Counted from the first letter of the stretch, positions 8,706 through 37,500 are shown. The stretch: 57,892 bases of DNA from a virus (IMGVR_UViG_3300048793_000013:1-57892); one strand, 5' to 3'. Numbers and translations are program-made. The notes: generated from the sequence alone by a model not told the origin.

Positions 8706-8999
8706 ATGAGCGACGAGAAAATCATCATAACGCCGAACGAGGCCGAAGGCTTATTGCCAGCCGGCGACACCGTTCACAATTTCGTCAACCCTGGCGTCAA
8801 TTTGCTGATCGGTGCTGACTACGACAGAGCCGACGCCATCAAGGCGTTCAAGAACGCGAAACGAATTGAGATCGGCGGCGAGCAATGCCGGAACATGAAG
8901 CATCCGATTGTCGTATTGGGTGACGACGGTCGGTACTCATTCTTTGAGGCGGATATGGCAAAAGTCGATGCGTTCGAAGCGGCGAGGGTGGTGGTATGA
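8706..8999 (+). CDS. hypothetical protein
   Basis: GAGGGG RBS; coupled to the next gene. Confidence 0.6.
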   Translation: MSDEKIIITPNEAEGLLPAGDTVHNFVNPGVNLLIGADYDRADAIKAFKNAKRIEIGGEQCRNMKHPIVVLGDDGRYSFFEADMAKVDAFEAARVVV

Positions 9000-9949
9000 A
9001 CCAAGATCAGTTTGCCGGGTGGAAGTCCCTGCTTGCCGGTGGCACAGCGCAATTCAGCGCGGATGAGCCAATCAGCGGCTATTTCCGCAGTCGCCGCTTC
9101 AAGGATGGTCCGCTCGACCCGGTTGCCATTTGGACCGACGAGGATGGATTGAATGTCCTGTTCGACAACAAGCCGGTAGCACTTGAACGGGTATGGCCAT
9201 GGGCCGCGAGGTCGCCCGTAACCTATGCTGCCTACCAGACAAGGATTGAAACCGGCAAGTGGCCTGACATCGATCCTGTTGTACATGAGGCAGCACAAGC
9301 CCGGCCGGGTGATAATAACCCTCCGACTGATCCGGCTGAATTACTAGCCGAACAGATTGCAGCGGCAAAAGCTGGCGCCGTCAATTACGCGATCATCAGC
9401 GACGATGAAACGCTGGCAAAAGCGCAAACGTTGCGCAGTCGATTGCTTGAACTGTCCGGGCAAGCCGATAAGCTGCGTGAGGAGGCAAAGAAACCGCACC
9501 TCGCGGCCGGGAAAGCCGTAGACGAGAAATGGCAGCCATTGGTGAAGTTGGCAAAAGGCATTGCCGATGGAATCCGCGCTTCGATGGAAAAGTGGGAAAC
9601 CGCCAAACTCGCCAAACGCCGCGAGGAAGAGGCCAAAGCCGCAGAGGCCCAACGCGCCCACGATGCGGCAGTAGCAAAGGCTGCGGCGGCAAACAGGCCG
9701 GCACCACCTCCGCCGCAAATTACGCCTATGGTGCCGTTTAGCGGGCCGATCAAAGGCGCGGCGGGGAGAGCGGCAAGCAGCAAGCCACGCATGGTGGTCA
9801 AGTGCATTATGGAACTTGATGTTCTCATAGCGCACTACAGACTGAGTGCCGAGCTTTCGGAATTTTTGATGGACCTTGCCCAGCGCGATGTTACGGCCGG
9901 AAAATCCGTCCCCGGTGTCAAAGTTGAGGAAGTTGCGAGGGTCGTATGA
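8996..9949 (+). CDS. hypothetical coiled-coil phage protein (recombination module)
   Basis: long ORF with PGDNNPP motif, helical core and PGVKV C-terminus. Confidence 0.7.
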   Translation: MNQDQFAGWKSLLAGGTAQFSADEPISGYFRSRRFKDGPLDPVAIWTDEDGLNVLFDNKPVALERVWPWAARSPVTYAAYQTRIETGKWPDIDPVVHEAAQARPGDNNPPTDPAELLAEQIAAAKAGAVNYAIISDDETLAKAQTLRSRLLELSGQADKLREEAKKPHLAAGKAVDEKWQPLVKLAKGIADGIRASMEKWETAKLAKRREEEAKAAEAQRAHDAAVAKAAAANRPAPPPPQITPMVPFSGPIKGAAGRAASSKPRMVVKCIMELDVLIAHYRLSAELSEFLMDLAQRDVTAGKSVPGVKVEEVARVV

Positions 9950-10158
9950 ACACCCGCCGCTACACCAAACCAATCGCAACGTACTACGCTCGTGGCTTTT
10001 CCATGCGCGAGACGGCAATCAAATTCGCTCTGTCGCATGAGCGTGTGCGGCAGCTATTGAGGCGGGACTATCCGGAGTTGATCCGGGTGCCAAACGCGGG
10101 CATGCGGTTGCTCCCGCAAATGAGGCTAAAGCTGCAAAAGATTGCCAGCAACACTTGA
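9946..10158 (+). CDS. sigma-region-4-like HTH protein
   Basis: GFSMRETAIKFALSHERVRQL. Confidence 0.6.
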   Translation: MNTRRYTKPIATYYARGFSMRETAIKFALSHERVRQLLRRDYPELIRVPNAGMRLLPQMRLKLQKIASNT

Positions 10159-10211
10159 CTGCTACGGGGCGGCGTGGTACACGGATTTTGGTTGATTGAG
10201 GGGGATTTGAA

Positions 10212-10397
10212 ATGGCCATCACCATCGACAAAATCGAATTGCTGGCGCTCAAAAAGCTTGCCGTCATCAACGGCGCTCTTGCCAAGCAATTCACCGGATC
10301 GACGGCACGGGAGCAATTGGCGCTCACCAATGTTCTCGTAGAAATTATCACGCGGGCGGAAGTAGACAACGCCAGCACTGAGGCCATGAAATCATGA
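10212..10397 (+). CDS. hypothetical protein
   Basis: GAGGGGG RBS. Confidence 0.55.
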   Translation: MAITIDKIELLALKKLAVINGALAKQFTGSTAREQLALTNVLVEIITRAEVDNASTEAMKS

Positions 10398-10657
10398 GCA
10401 AGTGGACGCCATGTGATTGGGAGGACAAATCAACGCGCCCTACAATCCCAGGCATATATGCTGTCATTATTGTTGGCGACAGCGAAAGGGAGGGTGCTCA
10501 CTTCTACTATTCGTATGACGACTATCAGACTTTTGCCACGCTTGAGTTGCCCGATGAAGATGGTGAGCAACGGTTTCACGGTGATAACGACGAAGAACCG
10601 GAACAAATCATTGCGTGGTTTGGTCCGATTGAAATTCCACCCTGCGATTGCCTTTGA
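10394..10657 (+). CDS. hypothetical protein
   Basis: W-rich pattern ending IIAWFGPIEIPP; coupled starts and stops. Confidence 0.6.
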   Translation: MSKWTPCDWEDKSTRPTIPGIYAVIIVGDSEREGAHFYYSYDDYQTFATLELPDEDGEQRFHGDNDEEPEQIIAWFGPIEIPPCDCL

Positions 10658-10668
10658 AAGAGGACAAC

Positions 10669-11574
10669 ATGGTAGCCACTAGCACAATCCAGCCCATAGC
10701 GGACATGCCGCAAGAGACTCCTGGAGGCGTCGCCAAGATCGCCTCTGGCATTGCGGGCATCATGGGGGAGATCGGCGTTGTCGGCAAGGACGGCAAGAAC
10801 CAATTCCACAACTACAAATACGCCAAAATGGATGACATACTCCAAAAGCTGACGCCGCTGATGGCGAAACACGGCATCGTCATCATGCAGACGGAACTTG
10901 ATCGAGAAATGTTCGACGAGGGGAAGGCCGTTGGCGTCCGGTACGCCTTCACGATCCTGCATTCGAGCGGGGAGGTTTGGCCGGATCGCCCTATCCAAAC
11001 GGGGCTTGCAGGGTGCCGACACAAAAACGGCGGGTTTGACGACAAGGCGCTGAACAAATGCCACACAGCAGCCAGAAAATACTTCCTGATGGCACTGTTT
11101 CAAATCCCAACCGGGGATGAGGACGCTGACGCCGACGCACCGCCTGAACCTCAACACGCCAAATTGCCGCCACCTCCATCCCTGCCGGATGGCAGAATTG
11201 CCCCGCATTTCATATCCGGCAAGATAGTGGGGCAAGACTTGCCGCACACTTGGGAATCGGTCTATATCCCATTCATCGAAAAGGCACAGAACGTTGCCGA
11301 AATCGAGCAATGGGAACTGAAGAACACGAAGCTGATAGGCGAACTACATGCCATGAAGCCGAACGACATTTACAGGCGGATCGAGGCGGCCACCAACAAA
11401 CGCAAGACTGAGCTTGGTGCACCACCGGCCGGTAAGCCAACACAAGCCAAGAAGCCGCCCGCACCCGTTGATATGGTGGCGGCGGCACAAGAGGCTGGGG
11501 CAGATTTCGATCCTGAGACGGGGGAGATTACAGACGGCGTGGTGTGGGAGGATGGCGCACCGGGCCATGAGTAG
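10669..11574 (+). CDS. erf: ERF-family ssDNA annealing protein
   Basis: KDGKNQFHNYKYA...DKALNKCHTAARKYFLMALFQIPTGDEDAD. Confidence 0.85.
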   Translation: MVATSTIQPIADMPQETPGGVAKIASGIAGIMGEIGVVGKDGKNQFHNYKYAKMDDILQKLTPLMAKHGIVIMQTELDREMFDEGKAVGVRYAFTILHSSGEVWPDRPIQTGLAGCRHKNGGFDDKALNKCHTAARKYFLMALFQIPTGDEDADADAPPEPQHAKLPPPPSLPDGRIAPHFISGKIVGQDLPHTWESVYIPFIEKAQNVAEIEQWELKNTKLIGELHAMKPNDIYRRIEAATNKRKTELGAPPAGKPTQAKKPPAPVDMVAAAQEAGADFDPETGEITDGVVWEDGAPGHE

Positions 11575-11584
11575 GAGCAGACAA

Positions 11585-11773
11585 ATGCCGAGACAGAGAC
11601 TCACAGACGATCAAAGGTCCGATTTGATTGGACCTGTTTGCGACATTGCTGCGCTACCGCTGACGTGGGAGCGAAAAAATCTTGAGCCAGATGACGTTCT
11701 TGATGCCCTAATCGGTGCGGCCCGCATGTTCAAACAGCGGGAAGGCTTTGCGGTGATTACACGAAAACTGTGA
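11585..11773 (+). CDS. hypothetical protein
   Basis: AGGAG RBS; coupled to the next gene. Confidence 0.5.
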   Translation: MPRQRLTDDQRSDLIGPVCDIAALPLTWERKNLEPDDVLDALIGAARMFKQREGFAVITRKL

Positions 11774-12300
11774 TGTCCTTCCCCGTCAAATTCCGCTGGA
11801 ACGGCGTCGGCATGGTTCCGCTCCCAGGCCATGCCACAAAGATGTGCCAGAAGCAGTTCGTCCCGGGAAACATCTACTTTCTACACGAGGTCACTGAGCG
11901 ATCCACGGTATCTCATGACCAACAGTTTGCATGGCTCAACGACGCATGGAAGACGCTACCTGATCACCTTGCCGAGGAATTCCCAACTCCAATGCACCTT
12001 CGAAAACGCGCCTTGATCGACTGCGGATTCTACCATGAGACAATCATTGATGTTGGAACGAAAGCCGGTGCGCTCCGGGTGGCGGCCTACATCAAAGGGG
12101 AGGATCAGTTTTCCTATGTCGTTGTCCGTGGGCCACTGGTTGTCAAGCGGGTGGCAAAGAGCCAACGAATGCACGGGCATGATCGCATGCTGAAGGATGA
12201 ATTCCAGGCGAGCAAGCAGGCTATCCTTGAGCACATATCGGCGTTGCTCGGGGTAACACCGGAAACACTGATGGCAAATTCACAAGAGACGACGACATGA
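11770..12300 (+). CDS. NinB-like recombination-associated protein
   Basis: RSTVSHDQQFAWL...HLRKRALIDCG...KSQ...EF pattern; position after erf. Confidence 0.55.
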   Translation: MMSFPVKFRWNGVGMVPLPGHATKMCQKQFVPGNIYFLHEVTERSTVSHDQQFAWLNDAWKTLPDHLAEEFPTPMHLRKRALIDCGFYHETIIDVGTKAGALRVAAYIKGEDQFSYVVVRGPLVVKRVAKSQRMHGHDRMLKDEFQASKQAILEHISALLGVTPETLMANSQETTT

Positions 12301-13295
12301 ACGCCGAAACCATCCTAGCCATTCCAGTGACGGCACCGGAACGATTGTTTCCACGCGATGCTCACGAGCGCAAGACAAAGTACCATGAGCTTGTCAAGCA
12401 ATGGCATCCTGACGTTGGCGGGTCGGCGGAGGTCTTTGCTCGGATCACGGCACTCCACCAAGCCGCTGAAGAAGGCCGTTGGGGAGCGACGAAAATCCTG
12501 AATATCGTTGACAAGACAGGGAAGGAATATGCCTTCCGGTACCGCGCCCATCATGTTTTCGAATTGGGCGATGTCTATATCGGTTCGCTTACGGTCGGAT
12601 GGTTCATTAAGCGAGAGCACGAAGCCTTGGTGCTTAACGGCCTCCGTGCCATCGGCTCAATCCGATTCCCAGACAACCGCATGAAGGAGCAGCACCAACG
12701 CTTTCTCCCAGTGGTTGCCCGCACAATCGAGACGGCTGACGGCTATCTGGTTCTCATGAACAAGACGGAAGACGTTGTTTCCCTAGCCGATCTTGTGACG
12801 TTCCTTGGACGCATGGACCCCAAGCACGTAGCATGGGTGATTTCCAGCTTGCTCAATATCCTGTGTTTCTATGAGATCATCGGGTTGACACACAACGGAT
12901 TGACGGCAGGAACCGTTTTTGTGTCACCGGAACACCATGCCGCGTTTCCTTTAGGGGGATGGTGGTATGCCATCAAGGCCAAGGGTGTCTTGAAATTCCT
13001 CCCGCCAGCCGTACATGCTGTGGCACCAACAGATGCGGTCGCCAGCAAAGTAGCGGACGGGCGTATTGACCTTGCCTCAGTTCGTGCTATTGGACGCGCT
13101 GCGTTAGGCGACCCCACGGGAGGCCGCCTGCAAAGCGCAACTGATGTACCGAAACCATTAGCCAATTGGCTGAGACTACCACCTCCACGTCGCGCTATCG
13201 ATGACTACGATGCGTGGCAGAAAGTTCTAAAAGACAGTTTCGGGCCAAGGCGATTCCTGGAACTGAAGATCGACACCGCCGCAATCTATAACTGA
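12297..13295 (+). CDS. J-domain (HPD) fused to a degenerate kinase-like domain
   Basis: YHELVKQWHPDVGG J-domain; HVAWVISSLL..GLTHNGL...VFVSPEHH..LGGWWY kinase-like C-lobe. Confidence 0.75.
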   Translation: MNAETILAIPVTAPERLFPRDAHERKTKYHELVKQWHPDVGGSAEVFARITALHQAAEEGRWGATKILNIVDKTGKEYAFRYRAHHVFELGDVYIGSLTVGWFIKREHEALVLNGLRAIGSIRFPDNRMKEQHQRFLPVVARTIETADGYLVLMNKTEDVVSLADLVTFLGRMDPKHVAWVISSLLNILCFYEIIGLTHNGLTAGTVFVSPEHHAAFPLGGWWYAIKAKGVLKFLPPAVHAVAPTDAVASKVADGRIDLASVRAIGRAALGDPTGGRLQSATDVPKPLANWLRLPPPRRAIDDYDAWQKVLKDSFGPRRFLELKIDTAAIYN

Positions 13296-13305
13296 GGGCA
13301 ATACA

Positions 13306-14217
13306 ATGGGCTACAGCCGATACGACGCTGGCATTTACAAGAGCTACGCCAGATCAACCGCGCATATGACGGATCGTGATTACACGGCAACCACGCTCAA
13401 GAAGGACTTTGATCCGCGTCAGATCAAGGTCCGAGAGTCCAAGCGGTCGGACATCAACCCGCACCCGACACCGGTCCTGGTTGGGCTGGACGTTACCGGC
13501 TCAATGGGCCGTGTGGTCGAGGCCATGCGCAAAAGTCTCGGAACGCTGTTCGAGCAAGTCATTGATCGCCATCCGGTCAGTGATCCGCACGTTCTCGCGC
13601 TTGCGATTGGCGATATGGATTGCGACAGTGCACCGATTCAGGCCACTCAATTCGAGGCCGACCCGGTCACCATCGGCAAGCAGATCGAGGACTTGTATTT
13701 GGAACGGGGAGGCGGCGGGAACACCCACGAAAGCTATCTCGGGCCGCTCTACTTCGCCGCCATGCGGACGGATTGCGATGCTTTCACTGAGGGCCGGAAG
13801 GGCTTCCTGTTCACGGTTGGAGATGAGGAACCCCAGACGGTGCTCGACAAGTTTCACGTACAGCGGTTTTTTGGGGACCAGATCGCCAACGATCTCAGCG
13901 CGGCCGATCTTCTCAAGATGATCGAACCAAACTGGCACTATTTCCATCTGATCGTGATGGAGGGTGACTATGCTGGTAGTCGGCCTGATCGAACAGTGAA
14001 GGCATGGTCTGATCTCATGGGGCAGCGTGCCATAAAATTGGTAGACCACCGGAAGATGGCAGAAGTAATCATCAGCCTCGTCGAGGTCACCATCGGCCGG
14101 GACAAGGATGCTATCGCCAAGTCGTGGGGTAAGGGCACCGATCTTGTCGTTGCAACGGCAATCAGTGGGTTGCCGGCGGCACCGGGAGCGGTAGGGGCTG
14201 GCCCGGTAGCTCTGTAA
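13306..14217 (+). CDS. vWA-domain protein
   Basis: GLDVTGSMG MIDAS motif, GGGGNTHESY, FTVGDE. Confidence 0.85.
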   Translation: MGYSRYDAGIYKSYARSTAHMTDRDYTATTLKKDFDPRQIKVRESKRSDINPHPTPVLVGLDVTGSMGRVVEAMRKSLGTLFEQVIDRHPVSDPHVLALAIGDMDCDSAPIQATQFEADPVTIGKQIEDLYLERGGGGNTHESYLGPLYFAAMRTDCDAFTEGRKGFLFTVGDEEPQTVLDKFHVQRFFGDQIANDLSAADLLKMIEPNWHYFHLIVMEGDYAGSRPDRTVKAWSDLMGQRAIKLVDHRKMAEVIISLVEVTIGRDKDAIAKSWGKGTDLVVATAISGLPAAPGAVGAGPVAL

Positions 14218-14238
14218 AACACGCTGGGGGATGGGGAA

Positions 14239-15402
14239 ATGCGTGCGATTGCTGTCATAGATTCAGCCTGGGGAGACAGCGGGAAGGGGGCGGCGGTCGA
14301 TGCTTTGGCTGCCGCCCCCTTCGGCACGCTCGTAGTTCGTCATTCTGGCGGTGCCCAGGCTGGCCATACCGTTGTCACACCGGGCGGCCATCGTCACGTA
14401 TTCAGCCACTTTTGTTCGGGCGCGCTTGCGGGCGCTCCCGGGCACCTCTCCGAGCATTTTGTAGTCAATCCACGCATCTTCTGTGTGGAGCGTTCCGAAC
14501 TGTTTGGAACGAGCGCCAACCTTAATCTGACGGTTGATCCTCGCGCCCTGGTAACCACGCCATTGGACGTAGCTATCAACCGCGCCATGGAGCGCAATCG
14601 AGGAAACAACCGGCATGGCTCTGTCGGCATAGGATTTGGCGAGACGATCGAACGCAGCGAGCGTGGGTTCCCACTGCGCGTTTCCGATCTAATCGACACG
14701 GATAGACTGACTGCCGTGCTCGGCGGGATTATTCTGGATTGGGCACGCAAGCGATGGGACGAACTCGACTTGGAGCAAGAGCGCATCAATTGGGCGTCAT
14801 TCTACGATGAAGCCAAGACGTTCATGAGCCATGTTAAATTGGCTGAACTATCCGATATCGTTCCTCTGTGGGATTGCGGTCTATATTGCACCGTCATATT
14901 CGAGGGCGCGCAAGGCTTGCTGCTTGATCAGCGGCGCGGCATGACGTTCCCATACGTCACAAGATCGAACACCGGCCTGCAAAACGTCCTGCCGATGGCC
15001 GAACAGATCGGGGCGCGAAATCTCCAGGTCGTCTACATGATGCGGCCGTATCTGACGCGGCATGGCGCCGGGCCATTGCCGGGCGAGACTGCGACCCTCG
15101 ACGGCATTGAGGTCGTTGACCCCACTAACCAACACGGAGAGTGGCAAGGTCCATTGCGGTTGGCACCAATGGATTACAGCATAGTAGCCGATGCCATCCG
15201 AGCCGATCTAGCCGAGGCCCCTGGCGTTGAACCATACATTGGAATTTCGTGCCTGGATCAGGTAAAGGATCATGATAGACGGCACGCTATTTCCGATAGG
15301 CTTGAATATGTCATCGGCCATCCGCTCGCCATTGGAGGCCACGGGCCATCGCGTGACAAGTACCAGATCGCGTTCACACAGCCGTTGAGGAAAACGGCAT
15401 GA
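14239..15402 (+). CDS. purA: adenylosuccinate synthetase-family enzyme (divergent PurA-like)
   Basis: WGDSGKG, GGAQAGHT, FEGAQGLLLD, PYVTRSNT, YLTRHGAGP; lacks the GxTTGR aspartate loop. Confidence 0.85.
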   Translation: MRAIAVIDSAWGDSGKGAAVDALAAAPFGTLVVRHSGGAQAGHTVVTPGGHRHVFSHFCSGALAGAPGHLSEHFVVNPRIFCVERSELFGTSANLNLTVDPRALVTTPLDVAINRAMERNRGNNRHGSVGIGFGETIERSERGFPLRVSDLIDTDRLTAVLGGIILDWARKRWDELDLEQERINWASFYDEAKTFMSHVKLAELSDIVPLWDCGLYCTVIFEGAQGLLLDQRRGMTFPYVTRSNTGLQNVLPMAEQIGARNLQVVYMMRPYLTRHGAGPLPGETATLDGIEVVDPTNQHGEWQGPLRLAPMDYSIVADAIRADLAEAPGVEPYIGISCLDQVKDHDRRHAISDRLEYVIGHPLAIGGHGPSRDKYQIAFTQPLRKTA

Positions 15403-15824
15403 GTCGTGTCGCTCCACCATCGCCGCCCGGCAGTCTATTCAAGAGTGACTCACCCAAGCGCAAGCTTGACATGGGGAGACACCCGCGCCAGCGCGACGAG
15501 GCATATCTAGCGGCGCTGAGGGAGTGCCAGTGTCTTTCGTGCGGATTAGACGTAGGATGTGAGGCTGCGCACGTTCGTATGTCACGCGGCCGGGGTACGG
15601 GCGGTGGAATGGGAATGAAATCCAATGATGAACACGCCACGCCTCTATGTTCCGGGTGCCATCGTCAACAGCATGCAGAGGGCGAACAAGTTTTCTGGGA
15701 TGCCATCGACATTATTCCGTTGGATGTTGCAAAAAAGTTACATACAGCGTCGCCAGATGTTGCTAGAATGAGGGCAATCATAGGGGCCGTGCTTATTCGT
15801 TTTAGACACACAGATGCAAAATGA
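15399..15824 (+). CDS. DUF968-like Zn-binding putative nuclease
   Basis: YLAALRECQCLSCG, EAAHVR, GMGMK.ND, PLCSGCHRQQH; last 11 codons lie inside the left inverted repeat. Confidence 0.75.
   Translation: MSRVAPPSPPGSLFKSDSPKRKLDMGRHPRQRDEAYLAALRECQCLSCGLDVGCEAAHVRMSRGRGTGGGMGMKSNDEHATPLCSGCHRQQHAEGEQVFWDAIDIIPLDVAKKLHTASPDVARMRAIIGAVLIRFRHTDAK
15787..15822 (+). repeat. left inverted repeat
   Basis: CCGTGCTTATTCGTTTTAGACACACAGATGCAAAAT; 35/36 match to the reverse complement of 16907-16942. Confidence 0.95.
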
Positions 15825-16900
15825 AGACCGTAACCTATAAATATCGGATCAAGGACCGCAGCGCGCGCAAGACGCTGGCGCGGCACGCTGTGGCGTGCAA
15901 TCAAGTCTGGAACTACTGCAATGCCTTTCAGCAGGACATTGAGCGCCGTTACCGTGCGGGCGCGCCTAAGCGCCGTTGGCCATCGGCGTTTGATCTGGCA
16001 AAACTCTGCAAAGGCACTGGCAAGGAACTCGGCATCCATCAGCAGACAGTCGGCACGATCTGCGATCAATTCGCCAAGAGCCGCGACAAGGCCAAGCACT
16101 CCCTCCGGTTTCGGTCTAGCTTTGGAGTTAACCGAGCACTCGGCTGGATACCGTTTCAAAAGCAGAGCCGACAGGTCGAAGGCAACTCAATTTGGTATCT
16201 CGGCAAGCAATATCGTTTCTTTGGCAGCAAACGTCGCCCATTGCCAGACAATGCCAAAGGCGGGGCTTTTGTTGAGGATGCACTTGGGCGCTGGTACGTC
16301 TGTTTCCATGTCGAGGTGGCAGAGTGCCAGCCACACGGCAACGGCATCATCGGCATTGATTTGGGGTTGCATACGCTGGTGACTACGAGCGCCGGTCAAA
16401 AGATTGAAGCCCCGCGTCACTATCGCGCCTTAGAAGGCAAGCTTGCTGTTGCGCAGCGCGCCCATAATAAGCAGTGCGTGCGGCGCATCCACGCCAAAAT
16501 CAAGAACAGCCGCAATGATTTTCTACATAAGCTTTCGACCACTCTGGCCGATCAGAACGCGTTCATCGCGGTCGGGGATGTCAACTCGAAACAGTTGGCC
16601 AAGACGCGGATGGCGAAATCCGTGTACGACGCCGGCTGGTCTACTTTCCGTTCCATGTTGAAATACAAGTCGGCCGGATACGTGGAAGTAGACGAAAGAT
16701 TCACGACCCAAACCTGCTCTCAGTGCGGTTGTTTGCCGCCTGAGAGGCCGCAAGGTATCGCAGGGCTTGGAATAAGGCAGTGGGATTGTTCCGAATGTGG
16801 TGCAAGCCACGACCGCGATGTGAATAGCGCTCTGAACATTCTCGCCATTGCCGCCCGCAGTGCTGCGGGTCCAGTTGTGGAAAGCCGGGTAGCCGCATGA
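15821..16900 (+). CDS. tnpB: TnpB RNA-guided endonuclease (IS200/IS605 OrfB family)
   Basis: TYKYRI, NQVWNY, GIDLG (RuvC-I), AVGDV with downstream VDERFTTQTCSQC, CSECG-HDRDVNSA (RuvC-III). Confidence 0.93.
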   Translation: MKTVTYKYRIKDRSARKTLARHAVACNQVWNYCNAFQQDIERRYRAGAPKRRWPSAFDLAKLCKGTGKELGIHQQTVGTICDQFAKSRDKAKHSLRFRSSFGVNRALGWIPFQKQSRQVEGNSIWYLGKQYRFFGSKRRPLPDNAKGGAFVEDALGRWYVCFHVEVAECQPHGNGIIGIDLGLHTLVTTSAGQKIEAPRHYRALEGKLAVAQRAHNKQCVRRIHAKIKNSRNDFLHKLSTTLADQNAFIAVGDVNSKQLAKTRMAKSVYDAGWSTFRSMLKYKSAGYVEVDERFTTQTCSQCGCLPPERPQGIAGLGIRQWDCSECGASHDRDVNSALNILAIAARSAAGPVVESRVAA

Positions 16901-28503: not shown

Positions 28504-28535
28504 AAGGCCGCACTCTCACGGGTGCGGTCTTTTTC
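28504..28535 (+). terminator. intrinsic terminator between convergent genes
   Basis: AAGGCCGCAC / GTGCGGTCTT followed by a T run. Confidence 0.7.
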
Positions 28536-31500
28536 TATGCTCCCAATGTTACTTCGAGGTTGCCCCGCTCATGTGGAATTGGTTTGACATCCGGATTCGA
28601 CGGCGCATTAGGCGCCGCTTTCTTTTCAACGCTCGCCAACGCGCTACGACACCAAGCATTCCACTGGGAAATGTCGTAATCGTGTTCGGTAAGCCATTGT
28701 CGTTCGGCGATATTTCCGTGGTCTTTATGGGCGGTTTTATATATGACAACTCGCTCCTTACCGGACGGCTCACGCCCGTACTTTGTCTTGAAGGCTGCAA
28801 GGGCTTCCTTCATCGCCTTGTACTCTGCCACCTCATGACGAAGCAGCGGTTGAACCGGATCAAGCGGCTTGCCGTTGTTCATAATCCGACGCGGCAGGGA
28901 CTTGTCATAGTAGAAGATATCTCCCGCCTTGGAAAGTTCTGAAATTACGTTCACGTCATATGTGTGGTTGATTACCGGCCAATCATGATCGCTGTCTTTC
29001 AATGGCTTGGTGGTGTCGCCATTGGCCAACCAGTCCTTGAAGTCATCAATGGACATTTCTACCATATGGCCGAGTCGCTTGCCACCCTTCCCGTCAGAGA
29101 ATCCTTTGAGGTAGACGGCTTTGGCTTGGGCAGCAGAGCCGAACGCCAGCATGCATTTGTGCTCATCATACTTGCCGGTCTCAGCGTTCAATTGATCGAT
29201 GACAAACACCTTGCGAGAGGCACGGTGCGGCCCGACGTAGCAATCAACACAATCCTGATCAGCACCGGTAGTCCGCTTGAGGTAGCCATACGCCGCCGGC
29301 ATTGTGACGGACCAACGCTTATCATCAGGGCCGATGCCTGATCGTTCATGCCCCTTGGCATTTTCAATTGCGATATCGAGCCCGTGCACATTGATATGTG
29401 CCTTGCGATAGTTGCCAGCCTCTTTCTGTGCCTCAGTTGGGTTGCTGTCAATGTAGTGTGCCATGACGCGGCCACCTCTGGCGCGTTCCTCGGGGCGGGC
29501 CTCTCTCAATCTGTCCTTTGCACTATCCGATAGATAACGCCATTTGACCTTACCTGGAATATTGCGGCGATCGATCTTGTCGAGATAGTGAAGGCGCCCG
29601 GCCGACGTAAGTTCATTGTCCCACCATGCCTCATCGTCAACTTTAGGTGCCGTGGCCTCTTGTGGCTTAGATTCTGATGTTTGAGCCGAGGGCGATGGCT
29701 TGGCGGCTGGCGCTTGCTCACCCAACGGCTTATACAGCCGTGCCCCACGCATTTCCTTTGGTTCTGTGATTGGCGCCACCGGTTCGGACTGCTTGGCCTT
29801 CACCTCAGCAGAGTGCACGTCGGGATGCTTTGGCGCCTTGATGGCCTTAGTAAACTCATCCAGTTTCTTGAGAGATTCCTGATATTCTTTTTCCTTCGGC
29901 CATGCGGTCGTTAGTGTCTTTTCCAACCGCTCTACACTCTTTCGCTCGTTCGCTAGTTCTTTTTCCAGCCGAGTTGGGTTATCCTTAATGTTACCGAGAA
30001 TGTTTTCAAACCGGCGTATCAACCCGGCCGGGTCTGTATGCTCGTTGATGACAGTTTGGTTTACAGCGGCATATCTGGAATTTCCTACAAGTGACGGCGT
30101 TGCCTCTAACGAAGTACCGTCTCCATCCCAGACATGACGCAATTGAATGTTCATGTCAAAACCTGACATGCGGCCGACATTTACGACCTTCGGGGTATAG
30201 AACTTCTGTCCACCACCAAAAGTCTTCAGCCTATCAAGGATTTCATCCCCGGCTGCCTTGCGCTCGGTTATCGTCTTGCCGTCGAGATCGACTGCAAATT
30301 TCTTGCCGGAGGTATCCGTAACGCGGCCGGCATCTTCTTTCGCCCCAGGTAGTGCAGTTTCGTATTGCTCAATCCGAGACTTGGCGGCATTGCCTTCGCC
30401 AAACGCCCGAGACTTGGTTTGGTCGTACACCCGCTTTTGCGACGTGAGCATGCGCACATTGCGGTCAAGTTCGGCATGTTCCAGGATACGAGGATCACCC
30501 GACGCTGCGGCTTTCATCTGCGCTGCATCAGGCAGCGGGTTGTCGATGTCCTCTGCCCAACGAGAACCCTTGGCACCGGACATAACCTGATTGAGGAACC
30601 CGGCTTTACGCTCTAGCGTCTGCCACATGAAAGCGTCAAATGACTTCTCAGTCACATAGCGGTAGATATCGACGTTCGAGTTTAAGTTGCCTTGGCGGAT
30701 AATGCGGCCGTCACGCTGTTCAACTTCTGCCGGCTTCCATGGTGCGTCAAGATGGTGCATCGCAATCAGACGATCCTGCACGTTCGTGCCGACGCCCATC
30801 TTTTCTGTGGAACCCATCAGAACGCGGATATCGCCGTCGCGCACTTTCTTGAACAGCTTTGCCTTCTTGATGTCGTCAGTAGCGTCGTGGATGAAGGCTA
30901 TTTCATGGGACGGAATGCCCTTGGCTACAAGACGCTGCTTGAGATCATCGTAGACGCTGAAGTCAGACGCGCCTTCCTCATCCCCCCCCTCTTCAGCCGA
31001 CTTTGCCTTACCCTTCCTGGCATTCTTTGGCGTCCCCATGTCGAGGAACACCATTTGAACCGTTCCAGGCTCTTTTCCGTTTTCCCATATCTTGTGGATG
31101 TTGCCGACAGCCTTAGCTACCTTGCCTTGAGGATTGAAGTCGAAATCAGCTAGTGTCCCAGGATTTGGCATATTCGATAAAGCATATTGGTCCGAGACAT
31201 TGTTGCCTATAAGCCTACCGTCAGTTGCCACCTTGCGGGCCGCAGTGCCAACGCTTGCAGCCATGGGTGCGCCCTTCTCAGGACGCACTCCCTTTAATAG
31301 TTCAAGTGACTTGATAACCCCTTGAACAAAGTTCTCCTCCGCAGACGACAGCTTGGCATTTACAATATGCGTCTTGGCTTCCGGCGCTGGCAACTTGAGC
31401 ATGGCCGCTGTCTTGGTATCGGCAATTTCGGAATAGAGAGAAATCAACTCCGGGATGTTGACGAACCTGGAGAACGATGCAACGTCCTTGAATGTGCGGC

Positions 31501-34500
31501 CATCTTGCGACAACTCGGTGTTAGTTGCTACCTTACCGAACGTGTTTGCCCATGCATCGAACGTTTCAAGCCCGCGCTCCTTCAGCTTGTCGTATTGAAG
31601 GTACCGCTGCATGGTCCACATTTCGGCCATGGTATTCGATATCGGCGTGCCGGTCGCAAATACAGCCGATCGGCCCGGACGGTTCTGTTCTAGGTACCGC
31701 GTCTTGAGGAACAAGTCTTCGGCGCGCTGTGATGCATTTTGGGCAAGACCCTTGACGCGATCAAACCGCGTTATGAAGTCGAGATTCTTGTACTTGTGGG
31801 CCTCGTCCACATACATGAAGTCAATGCCAGACTCCTCGAATGTCGTACCTTCGTCCTTGCGTTCCTCGTTCATCAACTTATCGAGTTTTTTTCTGAATGT
31901 CTTCTTTCTCTTTTCCATAGCCTTTACGGTTGGAGAGTTTTTGCCGCCTTCCTGTTCTTCGGCCTTTTGAACGCGCTCTAGTTCGTCCATCTGGTCCCTG
32001 ATGAACTTCTCGCGGAAATCACGTTGCATGTTGATGCGGCCGAATGCATCGTGCGTAAAAATAACGCCGTCCCAGTCGTTCGACGCTACCTTGGCAAGGA
32101 ACTTCTTACGGTTGTCCCTTGTCATCTCATCCTTTTCAGCGACAAGAATTTTGGCGTCCGGATATGCCTGAATAAATTCGCGGGAGAATTGCTCCAGCAT
32201 GTGGTTTGGAACCACATAGGCAGGCTTGTTGATAAGTCCGAGGCGCTTCTGTTCCATGCCGGAAGCGATCATTGATACAGTCTTACCACTACCGACAGCA
32301 TGCGCCATCAGAGTGTTGCCTTTCTGGATAATCCGCCAAACGACATCAAGCCGATGCTTGCGACCAGCAAAGTCAGGATTTAGCCCCGGCAACGTCAAGT
32401 GCGAACCGTCGTGATTTTCACCAACTAGGTCATTGTGGAGGCGGTTATAGATGCCTTCCAACAATTGAGAGCGTTCCGGGTCCTGCCATACCCAACCCTC
32501 GATACCCTTCTCAGGATCGCCCGTGAATGCTTCCTTAAGCAGTTCTGTCTTGACGCGGGCTTCTTCGGTCTTCGTTGTGTTTACCGCCCTGTGGCCGTCC
32601 CTATCCGGCGGATCGCGGACGGTAATAGGGCGCCCATTCATTGCCGATTCGGCAATCTCATCTACCCCAACCTCTTTTGTCCCGTACTTGGCACGGGCGT
32701 CGCCATCGAAGTACGATGCCTTAACCCGCCAATCGCCCGTGACTGGCACCTTGACAACCTTGATGCCACCCCCGCCAATCTCTTTGAGAAAATCCTCATA
32801 GACCGCCTCAGGCACCCACGGAGCCCCGAATTGGGCCGTAATTTCGGGACCAACCAGCGGCGTAGGCTGTACCTTTTCGAGCGCTGCAACATTACGCAAG
32901 TATGATGGATCATTGGCGGCGATCGACCGGGCATCCTCCAGTTTTTTTATGACGTTGCCAGACAGATACCTTGACGCTGTTTCCCATGCACGCCCGTCCG
33001 GATTTTGAAAGACCGTATCACCCAACGCGCTGATTGCAGCCTCGTGACTGTCTACACCAAGCGACTGCGCAATATGGTCTAGGTCAACGCCACCTTTATC
33101 ATTGAGAGATGCAGCGAGAGCATCAGACGGCCCGTTAATCTGCCGTTCCATCGGAGGCCGGATGACATCCTTAGTGAAAATGTCGGCCAGCTTGGTTTTT
33201 CCAGTCTCGGAATCATAGTTCTCAATGGAAGATACTTTCCATGAGTCGGGATCATTCCGAAATGCCTTGAAATTTGGATGACGCACAAGAACAACATTCT
33301 CGCCAGCCTTGTTGAGGCGCGAGGTGACGGTCTTCTCTTCTTTATTGATTGGGCCGTAGAGATCGACGAAATTATCATACTTCTTGCGCAAATCGGCGCG
33401 GAGAGCATCCTTGTCGCCCACGCCATCAATCTGCGCTCGCATCAGATCGTTGTAGGTATCTCTAATTCCGATGAGTTTCTTAACACGGGACGCCTCGATC
33501 GTCCCTATATCATGCTCATGTCCCTGCCCTTCGCGACGCTGATAGAGCTTCCCATCCTTCAAGAAGAACGCGCCATCCTTGATTCCTGCGCCAATTTCGT
33601 TGCTGTGAATCGGCGGTGGTGGCGGCGTATCGCGCACAAGCATCGCCCCTGCCGGCATATCATTTCGCGCTGCCTCAGCAATCTTTTGTTGCATGCCATC
33701 AGGGTCGCCAATCAGAACAGGCTCATTAGCGCGATGTTGTGTGCCCTGTAGACGCATTTCCCCAAGCATCATTTGTGGACGGTCAGAAAAATACTCATTG
33801 ATCTTTGTTGGCCCTTCGGGGGTCTGAATTGTTTTCAAGTCTGTCCATTTTACCCCATTGAAAGGCTGTTCACCCGGAACTTTCTTGCGCAGGAAAATAA
33901 TATCAGTCGTTACCTGTGTGCCTGCGTTCGACGCAAAGGCACCCTTGCTGCCACCGGGAAGACGGATAGCGCCCACAAGATCGGAAGTGTTTGCCAGTAG
34001 ACGACGTACATTGGCGTGCGTAGGTGCGTCCATTGTGTGAGATGACGTGATGAACGACACGATGCCACCAGGGCGCACCTTGTCGAGCGCCTTGATGAAA
34101 AAGAAGTTGTGAATCGAGTGTGAACCGTATGGCTTTTCCTCAACAGGGTAGTTGCCAAACGGCACGTTTGAAATTGCCAAATCGTAGTGGTTTGCCGGTC
34201 GCTTCAAGTCTTCGAAACCGTGAACATTGACCTCGGCGCCACCATAGAGCTTCTTGGCAATGCGGCCGGTGACGGAATCCAACTCAACGGCCGTCCATGC
34301 CGTCTTTGGCGTCCATTTATCGGGAATCAACCCAATAAAGTGCCCTATTCCGGCCGATGGCTCTATGGCCATGCCACCTTCGTATCCGAGATGATCCATG
34401 GCATCCCACATGCCGCGAACAACATCAGGCGACGTGTAGTGAGCATTCGGTGTCGAGGCGCGGGCAGAATCATACTCTTCGTCGGTCAACAGGGCCTTGA

Positions 34501-37500
34501 GTTGGCCACGCTCAGCTTCCCACTGTTTCCGGTAATCCCCCTTGAACATATCTTGAGCGTGAGCACCCCAGCCGGTGTACTTGACCAGCTTTGCCTTTTC
34601 CTCTGGGGTCGCATCGCGATTTTCGTCCTCAATCTGCTTGAGAACCTTGATGGCCTCTATGTTGCCGCGAACTTTCTGCTTTGCTCCGCCCTCGCCAACC
34701 AAATCCTCATCGGTAATGCGATAGTTCGACCGCGAGCGTTCGGCGATCTTCAGTTCTGCGTCTCTTCGTCCTCTGATGACGGCGGGAGGGGCTGGTTTAT
34801 CAGTTCCTCCCTCACCAGTTCGTCCACCTCCATCCGGCGGTTTTGTAACGCTCTCACTTTTTCCAGGTGTGGGAGTTTCTGGACCTCCGGGGTGTTGAGG
34901 TATTGGTGCATGAGGCTCGCCAACCTCTCCTCGGCTTCCTCCCCCACCGAAGAGAGATAGTTGTTCAGGTCGCCGGACTGGCGTAGCTGCGCCAGCATTT
35001 GCGGGTTGGCGTCCTCCAGGAACTTGCGGTGCATTTCCGCGTAATCCTTCGCCGAGTACATCCTTTGGCCCTCCGAATAAGTCTTCCTGGCCGGCAGCGG
35101 TACGCTTCTTGGCCTGCATCAGGGGCGGTTGCTCTTCTCCCGGCCGGGCAGATTCAGCCGCCCTACGCGCCCCCGCTTCGAGGATGGCTTGCTCGTTGCC
35201 GATTGGTAGCGGCTCCGTCCGTAGTGGACGGCCCCTAACGTCGCGAGAGGCTACTTCTCTTCGGAGTTGATCGGCTCCCTGTTTTTCTACCCGTTCCGGG
35301 CCACCGGCCTCATCGACACGCCTCATGACTTCTTTCAACATTCGGCCTTTGAGCGCCTTGTATTCCTCTTTGTTCCCTCTCAGGCTAGCCTTGTCCCCAC
35401 GAAACGCAGACAATTCGTCAGCCGTCAACACCTTTGGATAGAATCTTGCCCATCCGACATAGGAAGGTGTGCGTACCGCAGCTTCTACGTCAAAGGTAAT
35501 GCCGTCACGGGTAAACGGCCCCTCGACCAGGAACCCCTTAGAAGACCCGGACGGGTAATCATCAACAGGGCGTGTCTTGCGCAACTTAAGCCCCGTGACA
35601 GTCTCGACTTTGGGATAATCACGTTCCGGATTCTTGGTCAGAAACCGAATATCCATATCGATCGGTTCGTTGGGCCTAACGCGGGCATAGGTGCGCGATA
35701 CGAGGGAGCCGCCCATGACAACTTTGATGTCAGGGCCGAGCTTGTCTTGCCACTCACCGGCAACCTTGTTGGCGGTTGAAATAAGCTTGCCGGCGTCAGG
35801 TTCTTCCGGCCTGAGTTTTACTGGGACTTTTGGTCCAGCAGCACGGAAGATTTTGCCTTGATCGCCTTCTCCGCCCGCTGCTTCAAGTCCTTCGCGGCCT
35901 TCGCCAACCCCGGATCGCCGTATTTGGTCGCCACCCGCTGGAACGCCCTCGCCATTACCAGGGCCATTGCGGTCGGGAACCTCTTCTCCATAGCCTTCCC
36001 ATCCTTTGTCACGAGCGATTTTCTGGATATCTCGCCGTTCAACCGGTGCCAGCCCTAGATCAAGTCCCGGTTCGGCCGTAACCTTGCGTGCCTCATCGGC
36101 ATAGAACCCAAGTGCATCACTAATCCTCTTGCTGCCAAGTGCCCGACGATTCCCCCGCATGTCAAGCTCAGGAGCATAGAAAGCCCGCATGAAGCCCTCG
36201 ACGGTATCAGGTATCTTATTGAAAGCATCTGACTGTGCCAAGTAGGTGTCGAGTTTTGTCCCCTCCCCACGGATTTTTGCCGTCCGCTTGACCGCTTCCA
36301 TGAGGTCCGGGGTGGCATCCATATCCGGCCGGACACGTCCTGCCTCGACATCAGCCCTCAATCTGGCCCATTTTGGTGCCACGGTTGCCAACGCATTGGA
36401 GATCGAGCGGATTTCATCATCCGTCGATTCAGCAATACGTGCTATCACCCCGACATCGCCGTATGCCTTGGCAAAGACGGCATTGCGCAACCGGGTAGCG
36501 CCTTCAGCCGATAACTGCCCAGATGCGTCCATAAGAGCACCTTGTTCGGCCTGGGGGAGTTCCTGGACGAAGCGGCGAACAAAATCACGGTTTGCCCCAA
36601 TATCATTTGGATTGTGCAGGAGATTGAGCGTCTTATCATCGATCAGCTTGGCATCGCCACGCGCTCGTTCGGTGGCCGACATGGCAAGCGTAGACGCCTG
36701 ATTAGCCCCGGCCGTGAAGGCTTGCCGCTCTTGTGGCGACATCGGCGTAATGCGCTGACGCACCAATACCGGATTGCGATACTGGGAAACGTCAACACCC
36801 TGCCGGGCGAGCCATTCACGGTATTCTTGAACCTTAGCCCCACCTTCGCCATAGACATTGCGAAGCGCTAATACTCGGCCGTTGCCACTCTCGACCATGC
36901 CGTCTGGGCCAACGATAGGCGCTCCGCGATCGGCTTCAGCGGAGTAGCCTAGACGCTCAGGATCGAGATTGGATGCAATATCGCGAACTTGGGCTTGGCT
37001 GGCTGCACGGCTGCGCTGGCGCGGCTGTAGGGCCTTGTCGTATCCGGCGTCTTGGGAGGTCTTGAGGCTGGAAGCCTCGACCACAACCGGCGCTACATCA
37101 ATGGCAGTACCGTCAGCGGTCGATACACGGTGCGGGCGTAGGTTGGAAGGCTCGGCGCCGATCAGCCCTTGGGCGGCGGCGAAGGGGGATGGTTCTTGGC
37201 CTTGACCATTGCCGCCAGCTTCGCTGTCGCCTCCTCGAAGTGCCGGCTGGACATCTCGTCCATTTCGGCTGGCGTCGGCGATTTCCGCACTGATGTGGTC
37301 GGCAAGTTGGCCATTTCCCTCAATTATCCTCGTTGGTCTCTCGGAAGTGTCAGCGTCTAGGAAGTCATTCGCCTCACCTCTCAATGTATAAGCGGTCTGA
37401 CGCGGTTTGTCACCAACTTCCTTGATGTAATTTGGGTCTACAAGCCGTCCGGTATCAAGGAAACGCTTGATGTTGCGGCGGCCGGAAATCTCAGGCGTTG

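Follow-up and report, generated by a model that had tools for sequence, protein, structure and literature searches.

A widespread three-gene module carried by phage, comprising a predicted J-domain pseudokinase, a vWA-fold protein and a divergent adenylosuccinate synthetase superfamily member

The window analysed here is a stretch of viral DNA of 57,892 nucleotides (IMGVR_UViG_3300048793_000013). According to its ORF listing, three genes, here termed A, B and C, lie in the same direction on the + strand and together span positions 12297-15402:

12297-13295, + strand: gene A, 332 aa, J-domain and pseudokinase fold
13306-14217, + strand: gene B, 303 aa, vWA-fold protein with a MIDAS-like motif
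14239-15402, + strand: gene C, 387 aa, divergent member of the adenylosuccinate synthetase (PurA) superfamily

A and B are separated by 10 bp and B and C by 21 bp, while the start of A and the stop of C each overlap the adjacent ORF (upstream and next, respectively) by 4 bp. A sequence-only reading of this DNA had described three tightly linked genes for a J-domain/pseudokinase protein, a vWA protein and a remodelled adenylosuccinate synthetase; the coordinates, the shared direction and all motifs that it quoted were found in the translations, and its domain calls proved right. When A, B, C and the ORF upstream of A were compared with all PADLOC protein models, no family matched at E≤0.1, and a published description of the A-B-C arrangement was not found in the literature. 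The three genes form a widespread, undescribed module carried by phage.

The C family was used to fetch 160 loci, and in 153 of them B is located upstream of C on the same strand. In six of the seven loci without B, the locus ends within 240 bp of C, which is why B is invisible there; the remaining one has a truncated C. Gene A occurs in 82 of the loci, always in the order A-B-C. The linkage of the module genes is far beyond chance, with B and C as an obligate pair and A as an accessory found in approximately half of the loci. The gene-neighbourhood survey that had been suggested for the trio hence upholds its conservation, but places the core in B-C rather than in all three genes. The pair was seen in phages of Mycobacterium, Vibrio and Rhizobium and is not phage-specific, its distribution being patchy over phages and distant bacteria. 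Four bacterial loci were inspected, and all had ordinary metabolism or housekeeping neighbours, with neither a defence island nor a prophage. Within Rhizobiaceae, Competibacteraceae, Massilia, Clostridia and Melainabacteria the tree of C roughly follows bacterial taxonomy, suggesting that the gene has long resided in those bacteria.

The J-domain of A comprises approximately residues 1-60, and the remainder shows a protein-kinase fold. In the AF2 model (pLDDT 95.7) the HPD motif at 37-39, part of WHPD at 36-39, sits between two helices formed by residues 22-36 and 44-58; H37, P38 and D39 are each at least 90% conserved in an alignment of 46 sequences. The best PDB matches to the structure in Foldseek were the DnaJB1-PKA chimeras 8fe5 and 4wb7 (E ~1e-7), at least 500 kinases were matched in the PDB at E≤0.001, and the PHROGs search returned phrog_3043, 'kinase', with an E of 1.5e-4. 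No Pfam family, DnaJ (PF00226) included, matched A at E≤0.01. In the kinase part, THNG (198-201) and LGGWWY (219-224) stand where HRD and DFG are expected, as had been noticed before, and the 46-sequence alignment agrees, with H-N-x replacing HRD, LGGWW replacing DFG and no conserved beta3 Lys. Judged from these residues, the kinase domain is predicted to be catalytically dead.

For B, an AF2 model with a pLDDT of 89.9 placed integrin beta I-like and vWA domains at the top of the Foldseek matches (E ~2e-6), with 255 PDB matches at E≤0.001. The MIDAS-like motif D62-V-T64-G-S66 is a DxTxS variant of DxSxS; an alignment of 52 sequences shows at least 90% conservation of T64 and S66, while D62, GGGGN (135-139) and GDE (172-174) are invariant. 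B is predicted to be a metal-binding vWA protein. It matches phrog_2971 (E 7e-36) and belongs to a family of 914 representative clusters at E≤1e-30, while Pfam gave no family for B at E≤0.01 and none was precomputed for 120 listed homologues. B is more conserved than the enzyme, as its best 120 homologues share 59-84% identity compared with 42-61% for the homologues of C. At the aligned start, 150 of 157 B sequences have Met-Gly, and among the best 150 representatives nearly all independently called B genes begin at profile position 1. The C-terminal tail is disordered and in the window ends in the hydrophobic residues PVAL. A short hydrophobic-basic tail, ending in [RK][FLI], occurs almost only where A is present: among 83 modules with A it was seen in 51, and among 64 lacking A in 1 (Fisher p 4e-16, with shared ancestry ignored); the tail of the window's B is without the basic residue of this commonest motif. 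One homologue of B carries a fusion to two U-box domains, a type of protein-targeting module. A stable fusion of B with C was not found, and the sole long form probably reflects a frameshift with read-through from A into B.

The PurA family profile PF00709 matches residues 6-299 of C with 142.1 bits (gathering cut-off 27), covering only profile positions 2-291 of 416, and PDB entry 3hid matches residues 4-307 with an E of 4e-25. In PurA, the E. coli literature assigns catalytic roles to Asp13 and Lys16 of the P-loop, His41 of AGHT and Gln224 of EGAQG. The GDSGKG (12-17), AGHT (41-44) and EGAQG (222-226) motifs, stated earlier to be retained in C, were all found, and D13, K16, H43 and Q225 are 99-100% conserved among 156 family members; the TRSNTG and TRHGAGP motifs are likewise kept. 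In one homologue an intein is inserted exactly in AGH|T, and inteins typically occupy functionally critical positions. Of the guanine-site elements (TKLD and SxGP), D340 is kept in 97% within an SC-x-DQ motif, the Lys is changed to Cys in 83%, and the C-terminal GP-x-R is found in 74-85%. The C-terminal domain is ~40 residues shorter than that of PurA (387 aa compared with ~430).

In contrast to this core, the aspartate-binding elements appear to be lost across the family, as far as pocket geometry can be read from an alignment. The canonical T128-T129-G-R131 is replaced by S-C/V-G-L/I in the 156 members, in the window by S128-V129-G-I131 (GSVGIG, 127-132). T300 and T301 correspond to W/x302 and Q303, the latter in 100%, and a single arginine is left of the GRxRR cluster, R307 (99%), near which the register of two alignments differs by one position. 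The rebuilt loop of the window's C, D294-x-T296-N297...Q303-G-x-x-R307, comprises residues 294-307 (DPTNQHGEWQGPLR). Five canonical PurA sequences aligned beside C kept TTG(R/K) and TTGRxRR. Further, N38 of PurA is Q40 and K331 is C338 in C, and H126, E135, R139, R242, H275, D294 and N297 are near-invariant newcomers. The earlier statement that the aspartate loop and GTTGRG are replaced in the window therefore holds for the family as a whole.

C scores far below the NCBIfam purA equivalogs, with 111.6 bits for TIGR00184 (cut-off 395.55) and 128.4 bits for NF002223 (cut-off 402). All five bacterial genomes with a C-like gene that were examined also hold a full-length canonical purA (581-639 bits, profile 1-416), while their C-like genes reach 133-177 bits over approximately the first 280-314 positions of PF00709. 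Given the widely missed cut-offs and the canonical purA of the carriers, C was excluded as the housekeeping PurA. It was also excluded as PurZ, as had been claimed from the residue at position 13: PMC12884076 gives Ser at this position in all 147 phage PurZ sequences, whereas C has Asp13, and the PurZ model NF038379 scores C at 32.6 bits, its cut-off being 300. GenBank and RefSeq label C homologues adenylosuccinate synthetase, and RefSeq and PHROGs use '2-aminooxy adenylosuccinate synthetase'; the PurZ-type label is probably a mis-annotation.

NrtR is a regulator that senses ADP-ribose. In 38 of 80 bacterial loci the first gene of the module has an NrtR-like gene in divergent orientation less than 400 bp away; nrtR was not seen in roughly half of these loci, and in 10 of the 80 the upstream DNA is too short for a decision. 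The NrtR_WHD domain (PF21906) was found in all 36 regulators scanned of the 44 found. Palindromes of the form TTGCAA-N8-TTGCAA or TGTTAT-N6-ATAACA, allowing at most 2 mismatches, are present in 20 of 38 nrtR-module intergenic regions compared with 10 of 727 control segments, the motif having been derived from those same intergenic regions. In large phages the module is found beside NAD-salvage genes: NAMPT lies within 7 kb in 17 of 165 loci (14 of 80 viral-scan loci) and NMNAT-Nudix in 11 viral loci. The window itself has no nrtR, its matches to an NrtR-like operator near the module are at chance level, and PF04095, PF01467 and PF00293, for NAMPT, NMNAT and Nudix, had no match in its ~67% complete record. 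The link to NAD hence comes entirely from the relatives, where the adjacency to nrtR suggests that the module probably performs nucleotide chemistry tied to NAD. The sequence-only reading had considered a modification or counter-defence system; the ordinary chromosomal neighbourhoods and NrtR, alongside the empty PADLOC search, point more to nucleotide/NAD metabolism than to DNA modification or classical counter-defence.

Tentatively, and with somewhat less than even confidence, we infer that C is a GTP-driven ligase for a nucleophile other than aspartate, which works obligately with B and is linked to NAD/adenine-nucleotide homeostasis. Like PurA, C would use GTP to phosphorylate a purine nucleotide at its 6-oxo group, and the activated carbon would be passed to ammonia, to another small amine that is neutral or cationic, or to an amine of a protein instead of L-aspartate, in a dicarboxylate pocket that appears rebuilt with its arginines gone. 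B, as the constant partner, may be a substrate-presenting or regulatory subunit. The J-domain of A should recruit the host Hsp70, DnaK, and either the dead kinase or the recruited DnaK probably docks the hydrophobic-basic tail of B. As a putative part of an NrtR regulon, the bacterial module would switch on when NAD+ is broken down; phages, in which it often lies beside NAMPT and NMNAT-Nudix, probably carry it so that adenine nucleotides and NAD+ remain usable while the infection proceeds. Pairing with a vWA protein and a J-domain pseudokinase would be unusual for a plain metabolic enzyme and would be just as much in keeping with a conflict function or one directed at proteins.

We consider it rather unlikely that B and C carry out chemistry new for PurA relatives, either a one-step amination of a 6-oxopurine or an N6-linkage to a protein amine, as an NrtR-controlled NAD/adenylate arm that phages deploy against NAD-depleting immunity. 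If true, amination would bypass adenylosuccinate and PurB on the way to AMP or to an adenine nucleotide of the ADP-ribose/NAD type, while linkage would place a purine nucleotide on a protein amine, e.g. the nearly invariant N-terminal glycine of B; the phage module would then sometimes include a DnaK-recruiting pseudokinase.

The loss of the small-molecule pocket and the obligate presence of B would also fit a protein-nucleotide ligase, in which C joins the activated purine nucleotide via C6 to a protein amine, an option that the sequence-only reading had named beside a metabolite. This amine would most plausibly be on B, as a lysine or the N-terminal Gly exposed after removal of Met, with A and DnaK presenting or remodelling the substrate. 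The higher conservation of B than of C (within its best 120 homologues), the Met-Gly start in 150 of 157 sequences together with the called gene starts of the best 150 representatives, and a chaperone-recruiting partner are in agreement with a protein substrate. The conserved N-terminus could be purely structural, though, a stable B-C fusion was not found, and a metabolite fits the putative NrtR control and the NAD-salvage neighbours better. We regard this function as unlikely.

We assign an equally low probability to a conflict system for defence, superinfection exclusion or counter-defence, in which A and B would sense or bind a foreign protein and C would be the effector, consuming GTP or IMP or making a signalling nucleotide. 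The patchy spread over phages and distant bacteria, the resemblance of the parts to the vWA protein and kinase of the TerY-P triad and the U-box fusion of one B homologue would suit such a role. The same holds for the NAD-reconstitution genes next to phage modules, genes of a kind described as counter-defence in 10.1101/2024.02.11.579819. Against it stand the lack of PADLOC matches for A, B and C, the housekeeping surroundings of the four bacterial loci, the taxonomy-tracking tree, which suggests long residence, and the putative control by a metabolic repressor.

It is quite improbable that C has given up substitution chemistry and acts as a switch or sensor binding GTP or a nucleotide, which together with B, as well as with A and DnaK, controls or builds another machine in the manner of SIMIBI-class GTPases and MoxR-vWA chaperone pairs. 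A vWA protein combined with an NTPase is a known theme, and the shortened C-terminal domain, the partial Pfam match and the chaperone-recruiting A would be compatible with it, but the near-complete conservation of Asp13, His43 and Gln225, along with TRSNTG and TRHGAGP, goes beyond GTP binding, and the intein in AGH|T is typical of a critical site. An ordinary auxiliary adenylosuccinate synthetase by which phage raise AMP synthesis, or a PurZ-type enzyme for 2-aminoadenine DNA, is very improbable despite the PF00709 match and the database labels, since C scores 128 against 402 (purA) and 32.6 against 300 (PurZ), the aspartate-binding residues are gone, position 13 is Asp and not Ser, the carriers keep their own purA, and the obligate vWA partner would be left unexplained.

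Regarding the preferred GTP-driven ligase, the closest known enzyme is PurA (EC 6.3.4.4; PF00709; PDB 1ade, 3hid), with which C shares the superfamily, the N-terminal two-thirds of the fold, Asp13, the His of AGHT, the Gln of EGAQG and the guanine-site Asp, and is expected also to share the GTP-driven phosphorylation of a 6-oxopurine. C differs in the change of GTTGRG to GS(C/V)G(L/I)G and of TTGRxRR to (W)QGxxR, and in that it never stands alone but pairs with a vWA protein and coexists with a true purA. PurZ and PurZ0, the 2-aminoadenylosuccinate synthetases of Z-genome phages, are likewise phage-borne PurA paralogues with altered substrate use, which C may resemble in that respect; PurZ has Ser13 where C has Asp13, and still uses aspartate.

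The relatives that lie divergently from nrtR, or beside NAMPT and NMNAT-Nudix in large phages, recall the NrtR regulon and NARP2 (NAMPT and NMNAT), although A, B and C are outside the known NAD enzyme families, and a word search of two NARP papers found no mention of adenylosuccinate, PurA or vWA. Rodionov et al. 2008 (PMC2330246) include an NrtR-controlled divergon of unknown function, nrtR<#>nrtX-nrtY, which the module matches in layout.

The TerY-P triad, which consists of the vWA protein TerY, a Ser/Thr kinase and a PP2C phosphatase, and MoxR-vWA pairs likewise combine a vWA/MIDAS protein with a kinase-fold protein or an NTPase in one functional unit. The present module has no PADLOC match, no phosphatase was seen in it in the window, its kinase lacks catalytic residues and bears a J-domain, and its NTPase belongs to the PurA family and not to AAA+. 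Finally, an HPD-bearing J-domain joined to a kinase fold is known from eukaryotic GAK and from the DnaJB1-PKA fusion, and among phages RB43 has the J-protein Rki. These differ from A, with its dead kinase part and J-domain without a Pfam DnaJ match, in domain order and origin; phage J-proteins that hijack DnaK are known.

The best-supported reading of the three-gene module in the window combines four elements. B, a vWA/MIDAS protein, and C, a divergent PurA homologue, would form an obligate unit; C would be a GTP-dependent ligase of the PurA type that uses a nucleophile other than aspartate; A, a J-domain pseudokinase, would be an optional adaptor recruiting DnaK; and the B-C unit would serve an ADP-ribose-responsive homeostasis of NAD and adenine nucleotides that phages have borrowed. 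The three genes are co-directional, with gaps of 10 bp (A-B) and 21 bp (B-C), and are embedded in a longer plus-strand gene run that includes an ERF recombinase, an HNH/DUF968 protein and an OrfB/TnpB:

10648-11574, + strand: ERF recombinase/single-strand annealing protein (PF04404)
12297-13295, + strand: A, 332 aa (ORF call)
13306-14217, + strand: B, 303 aa (ORF call)
14239-15402, + strand: C, 387 aa (ORF call)
15399-15824, + strand: HNH/DUF968 protein (Pfam/PHROG search)
15821-16900, + strand: IS605-type OrfB/TnpB (Pfam OrfB_IS605 and a Cas12f1-like TNB domain; phrog_506 transposase)

Upstream of A, a recombination module (8996-11574, + strand) pairs an exonuclease-like protein (phrog_10477) with the ERF-family protein. 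The OrfB/TnpB gene lies inside this phage early-gene run, three ORFs' worth 3' of the module, and shares 4 bp with the HNH/DUF968 gene. The ORF upstream of A at 11770-12300 (phrog_15346) was considered as a further member, but has no match among the 165 loci of the wider set and is therefore placed outside the module. The virus record is linear, has an estimated completeness of 67%, and also encodes an endolysin, a DNA-ejection-like protein and a virion structural protein. Two adjoining minus-strand ORFs probably encode ejection proteins or other internal proteins of a podovirus-like virion:

28535-40411, - strand: giant ORF of 3958 aa
40415-44506, - strand: ORF of 1363 aa, its N-terminus matching the PHROG 'DNA ejection protein' phrog_4287

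Neither A nor B has a Pfam match. The model of A (pLDDT 95.7) finds chimeras of DnaJB1 and the PKA catalytic subunit as its top PDB matches, plus many kinases. Among 46 family members, the HPD motif of the J-domain is at least 90% conserved, and in the pseudokinase the beta3 lysine is not conserved, HRD is replaced by H-N-x and DFG by LGGWW. B is predicted to adopt a vWA fold (AlphaFold2, pLDDT 89.9), with integrin beta I-like and vWA domains as top PDB matches, and its alignment reveals a MIDAS-like D62-x-T64-x-S66. An ESM Atlas search with B returned unnamed clusters only; the closest named ones are vWA, with scores of 0.82-0.84 that serve as leads only. Together with the Pfam match of C, these models, PDB matches and conserved residues therefore bear out the sequence-only reading of the operon as J-domain/pseudokinase, vWA protein and remodelled adenylosuccinate synthetase (AdSS), and every motif it named is found in the window's ORF translations. 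In a gammaproteobacterial MAG (L137:3354-4964), the C-terminus of a B homologue is extended by 246 residues that contain two U-box domains of the E3 ligase type (Pfam 84.6 bits, two stretches). The sole fused-form match for B, the apparent A-B fusion P0241, contains an Arg-rich segment of the kind that frameshifts typically produce and is therefore not treated as a real fusion.

Using tblastn against 50,697 phage records, we detected C in 235 records (201 Mycobacterium, 10 Rhizobium, 6 Vibrio and others), B in 219 (200 Mycobacterium, 10 Rhizobium, 6 Vibrio and 3 others) and A in 160, of which 159 are from Mycobacterium; a blastn search of phage records with the three genes gave no match. The phages with C homologues include Bxz1-type cluster C mycobacteriophages, and Mycobacterium phage MoMoMixon has a kinase, a B-like protein, a small ORF and a PurA-like protein in this order. 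A single protein-sequence query of viral contigs returned one weak locus only; of the 223 candidate stretches that alignment-seeded scans picked out of viral contigs, 203 are relatives, as are at least 583 of at least 600 from bacterial genomes, with C homologues in the genomes of more than 580 bacterial species among the matches listed.

Among the best 80 of the 203 viral and the best 80 of the at least 583 bacterial relatives, 153 of the 160 loci have B on the same strand as C and upstream of it, and the distance between the two is at most 600 bp in 138. In six of the seven other loci, C lies no more than 240 bp from the locus edge, and in the remaining one C is truncated. A is present in 82 of the 160 loci, in the order A-B-C every time. 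B is better conserved than C, the top 120 homologues being 59-84% versus 42-61% identical, and its family comprises 914 representative clusters at E<=1e-30. In a FastTree phylogeny of C, whose many unsupported forks and long-branch warnings limit it to broad statements, the family (155 rows) stands apart from canonical PurA, with one long-branch mycobacteriophage sequence on the canonical side; the C of the window groups within alphaproteobacterial sequences, and the presence or absence of A requires at least 13 changes. In a Clostridium MAG (L151:5937-7627), nrtR lies directly upstream of a truncated C (208 aa) and no B was found at this locus, which may represent a degraded module.

Where A is present, B usually has a short terminal motif behind a disordered linker, e.g. 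GVVRF, GVTRL or GLVKF. Of 83 modules that include A, 51 have a B with [RK][FLI] at its C-terminus, versus 1 of 64 without A (Fisher p 4e-16, a test that ignores phylogeny and drops A-less loci in which B starts less than 1300 bp from the locus edge). The tails in A-less modules are truncated or of other kinds, such as RRLLPFF in Rhizobiaceae. We suggest that A, or the DnaK recruited by A, would hold B by this tail. In the window, B ends in PVAL, which is hydrophobic rather than basic. In 17 of the 165 loci (L002:3222-3935, L003:2777-3568 and 15 further ones, in large A-less Vibrio and Rhizobium-type phages), a Met-rich protein with an N-terminal 'DGVVWD' and a Met/Gly/Gln-rich tail is encoded upstream of B. 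It belongs to no Pfam family, was not found in the window, and may replace A as the third partner.

The constant pairing of B with C would also suit a protein-nucleotide ligase that acts on B itself, and the first two residues of B are Met-Gly in 150 of 157 sequences; we nevertheless consider this reading unlikely. The predicted B-C complex scores 0.00 against a mark of 0.32, which counts neither for nor against binding.

For the best-supported reading, in which the unit serves NAD homeostasis, the gene neighbourhoods are informative. NrtR is a sensor of ADP-ribose. ORF-based clustering of neighbours is noisy from spurious overlapping ORFs in GC-rich DNA and was used as a pointer only; Pfam confirmed NAMPT, NMNAT-Nudix and one NrtR near the module. 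In the best 80 of the at least 583 bacterial loci, an NrtR-like ORF is present in 44; it is divergent and less than 400 bp from the first module gene in 38, while 10 of the 80 have too little upstream DNA. All 36 of the 44 regulators that were scanned contain the NrtR winged-helix domain (PF21906 NrtR_WHD). Palindromes of the form TTGCAA-N8-TTGCAA or TGTTAT-N6-ATAACA (up to two mismatches) occur in 20 of the 38 intergenic regions versus 10 of 727 control segments, a count biased in favour of the former, as the candidate-operator motif was derived from those same 38 regions. NAMPT lies within 7 kb of the module in 17 of the 165 loci, 14 of these among the 80 viral-scan loci, and NMNAT-Nudix within 7 kb in 11 viral loci. 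In the window, NrtR-type palindromes are at chance level with none near the module, and no nrtR, NAMPT, NMNAT or Nudix gene was found there.

NAD+ destruction is the commonest outcome of abortive-infection immunity, and a module carried by phages next to NAD-salvage genes could be a conflict system. The four bacterial neighbourhoods inspected contain ordinary metabolic genes and no prophage or defence genes, and we regard this reading as doubtful.

The proposed ligase activity of C rests on its active site, which we examined in an alignment of 156 family members and five canonical PurA sequences from carrier genomes, with residue roles assigned as in E. coli PurA. Asp13, Lys16, His43 (AGHT) and Gln225 (EGAQG) are 99-100% conserved, and the guanine-site aspartate, D340, is 97% conserved. 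The aspartate-binding T128-T129-G-R131 reads S-C/V-G-L/I, the canonical T301 is replaced by Q303 in 100% of the members, and the GRxRR cluster is reduced to one arginine, R307, with the register off by one position between two alignments. Further changes are N38 to Q40 and K331 to C338, and H126, E135, R139, R242, H275, D294 and N297 are near-invariant residues new to the family. Through these replacements the pocket has fewer arginines and more acidic and neutral residues. The C branch thus appears to have retained the catalytic machinery and to have discarded the aspartate pocket, and the dicarboxylate amine would have given way to a nucleophile that is neutral or cationic. More speculatively, a nucleotide with more phosphates could be accommodated by the extra basic residues near the ribose-phosphate site. 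One viral C homologue (L073:3403-5925) carries an intein with a LAGLIDADG endonuclease (Pfam Intein_splicing, LAGLIDADG_3) exactly between the H and T of AGHT, consistent with this motif being functionally critical. C could also be a non-catalytic GTP switch; with the catalytic residues near-invariant, we judge this quite improbable.

In textbooks, PurA has been the only route that leads from IMP to AMP, and PurZ illustrates that a small change in the PurA fold can rewrite the phage DNA alphabet. C matches Pfam Adenylsucc_synt with 142 bits, restricted to profile positions 2-291 of 416, and its residues 4-307 match solved PurA structures (E 4e-25). It reaches only 128 and 112 bits with the NCBIfam purA equivalogs (cut-offs 402 and 396) and 32.6 bits with PurZ (cut-off 300). 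All five C-carrying bacterial genomes examined contain a canonical full-length purA (581-639 bits), while their C-like genes score only 133-177 bits. Hence, that C is an ordinary AdSS or PurZ, as database labels for this branch have it, is effectively excluded by sequence, and the claim that C is not PurZ holds, given Asp13 instead of Ser and the low PurZ score. PHROGs and RefSeq label C homologues '2-aminooxy adenylosuccinate synthetase', the PurZ name, e.g. at L001 (Mycobacterium phage MoMoMixon gp259). As members of the family carry Asp13 and do not pass the PurZ model, and Ser occupies position 13 in each of the 147 phage PurZ sequences (PMC12884076), this is probably a propagated mis-annotation. 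The same paper counts 481 PF00709 homologues encoded by phage genomes, of which the non-PurZ ones serve only as tree root and are uncharacterised there.

C represents a large new variant within a known superfamily, a third large branch of the PurA fold beside PurA and PurZ. A is a natural example, in phages or bacteria, of a J-domain pseudokinase that seems to link Hsp70 with a complex built around a metabolic enzyme. The placement with NrtR and phage NAD salvage makes it testable which extra nucleotide chemistry cells and phages switch on upon NAD+ destruction. Literature searches covering main texts found no description of the module, and the terms adenylosuccinate, PurA, vWA and von Willebrand are absent from the main text of the NARP papers searched by term; within this literature, the three-protein combination is without a described counterpart. 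Rodionov et al. 2008 (PMC2330246) list an NrtR-controlled divergon of unassigned function, nrtR<#>nrtX-nrtY, with nrtX-nrtY pairs in Proteus, Hahella, Frankia, Kineococcus and Streptomyces; in its divergent layout it resembles nrtR with B-C.
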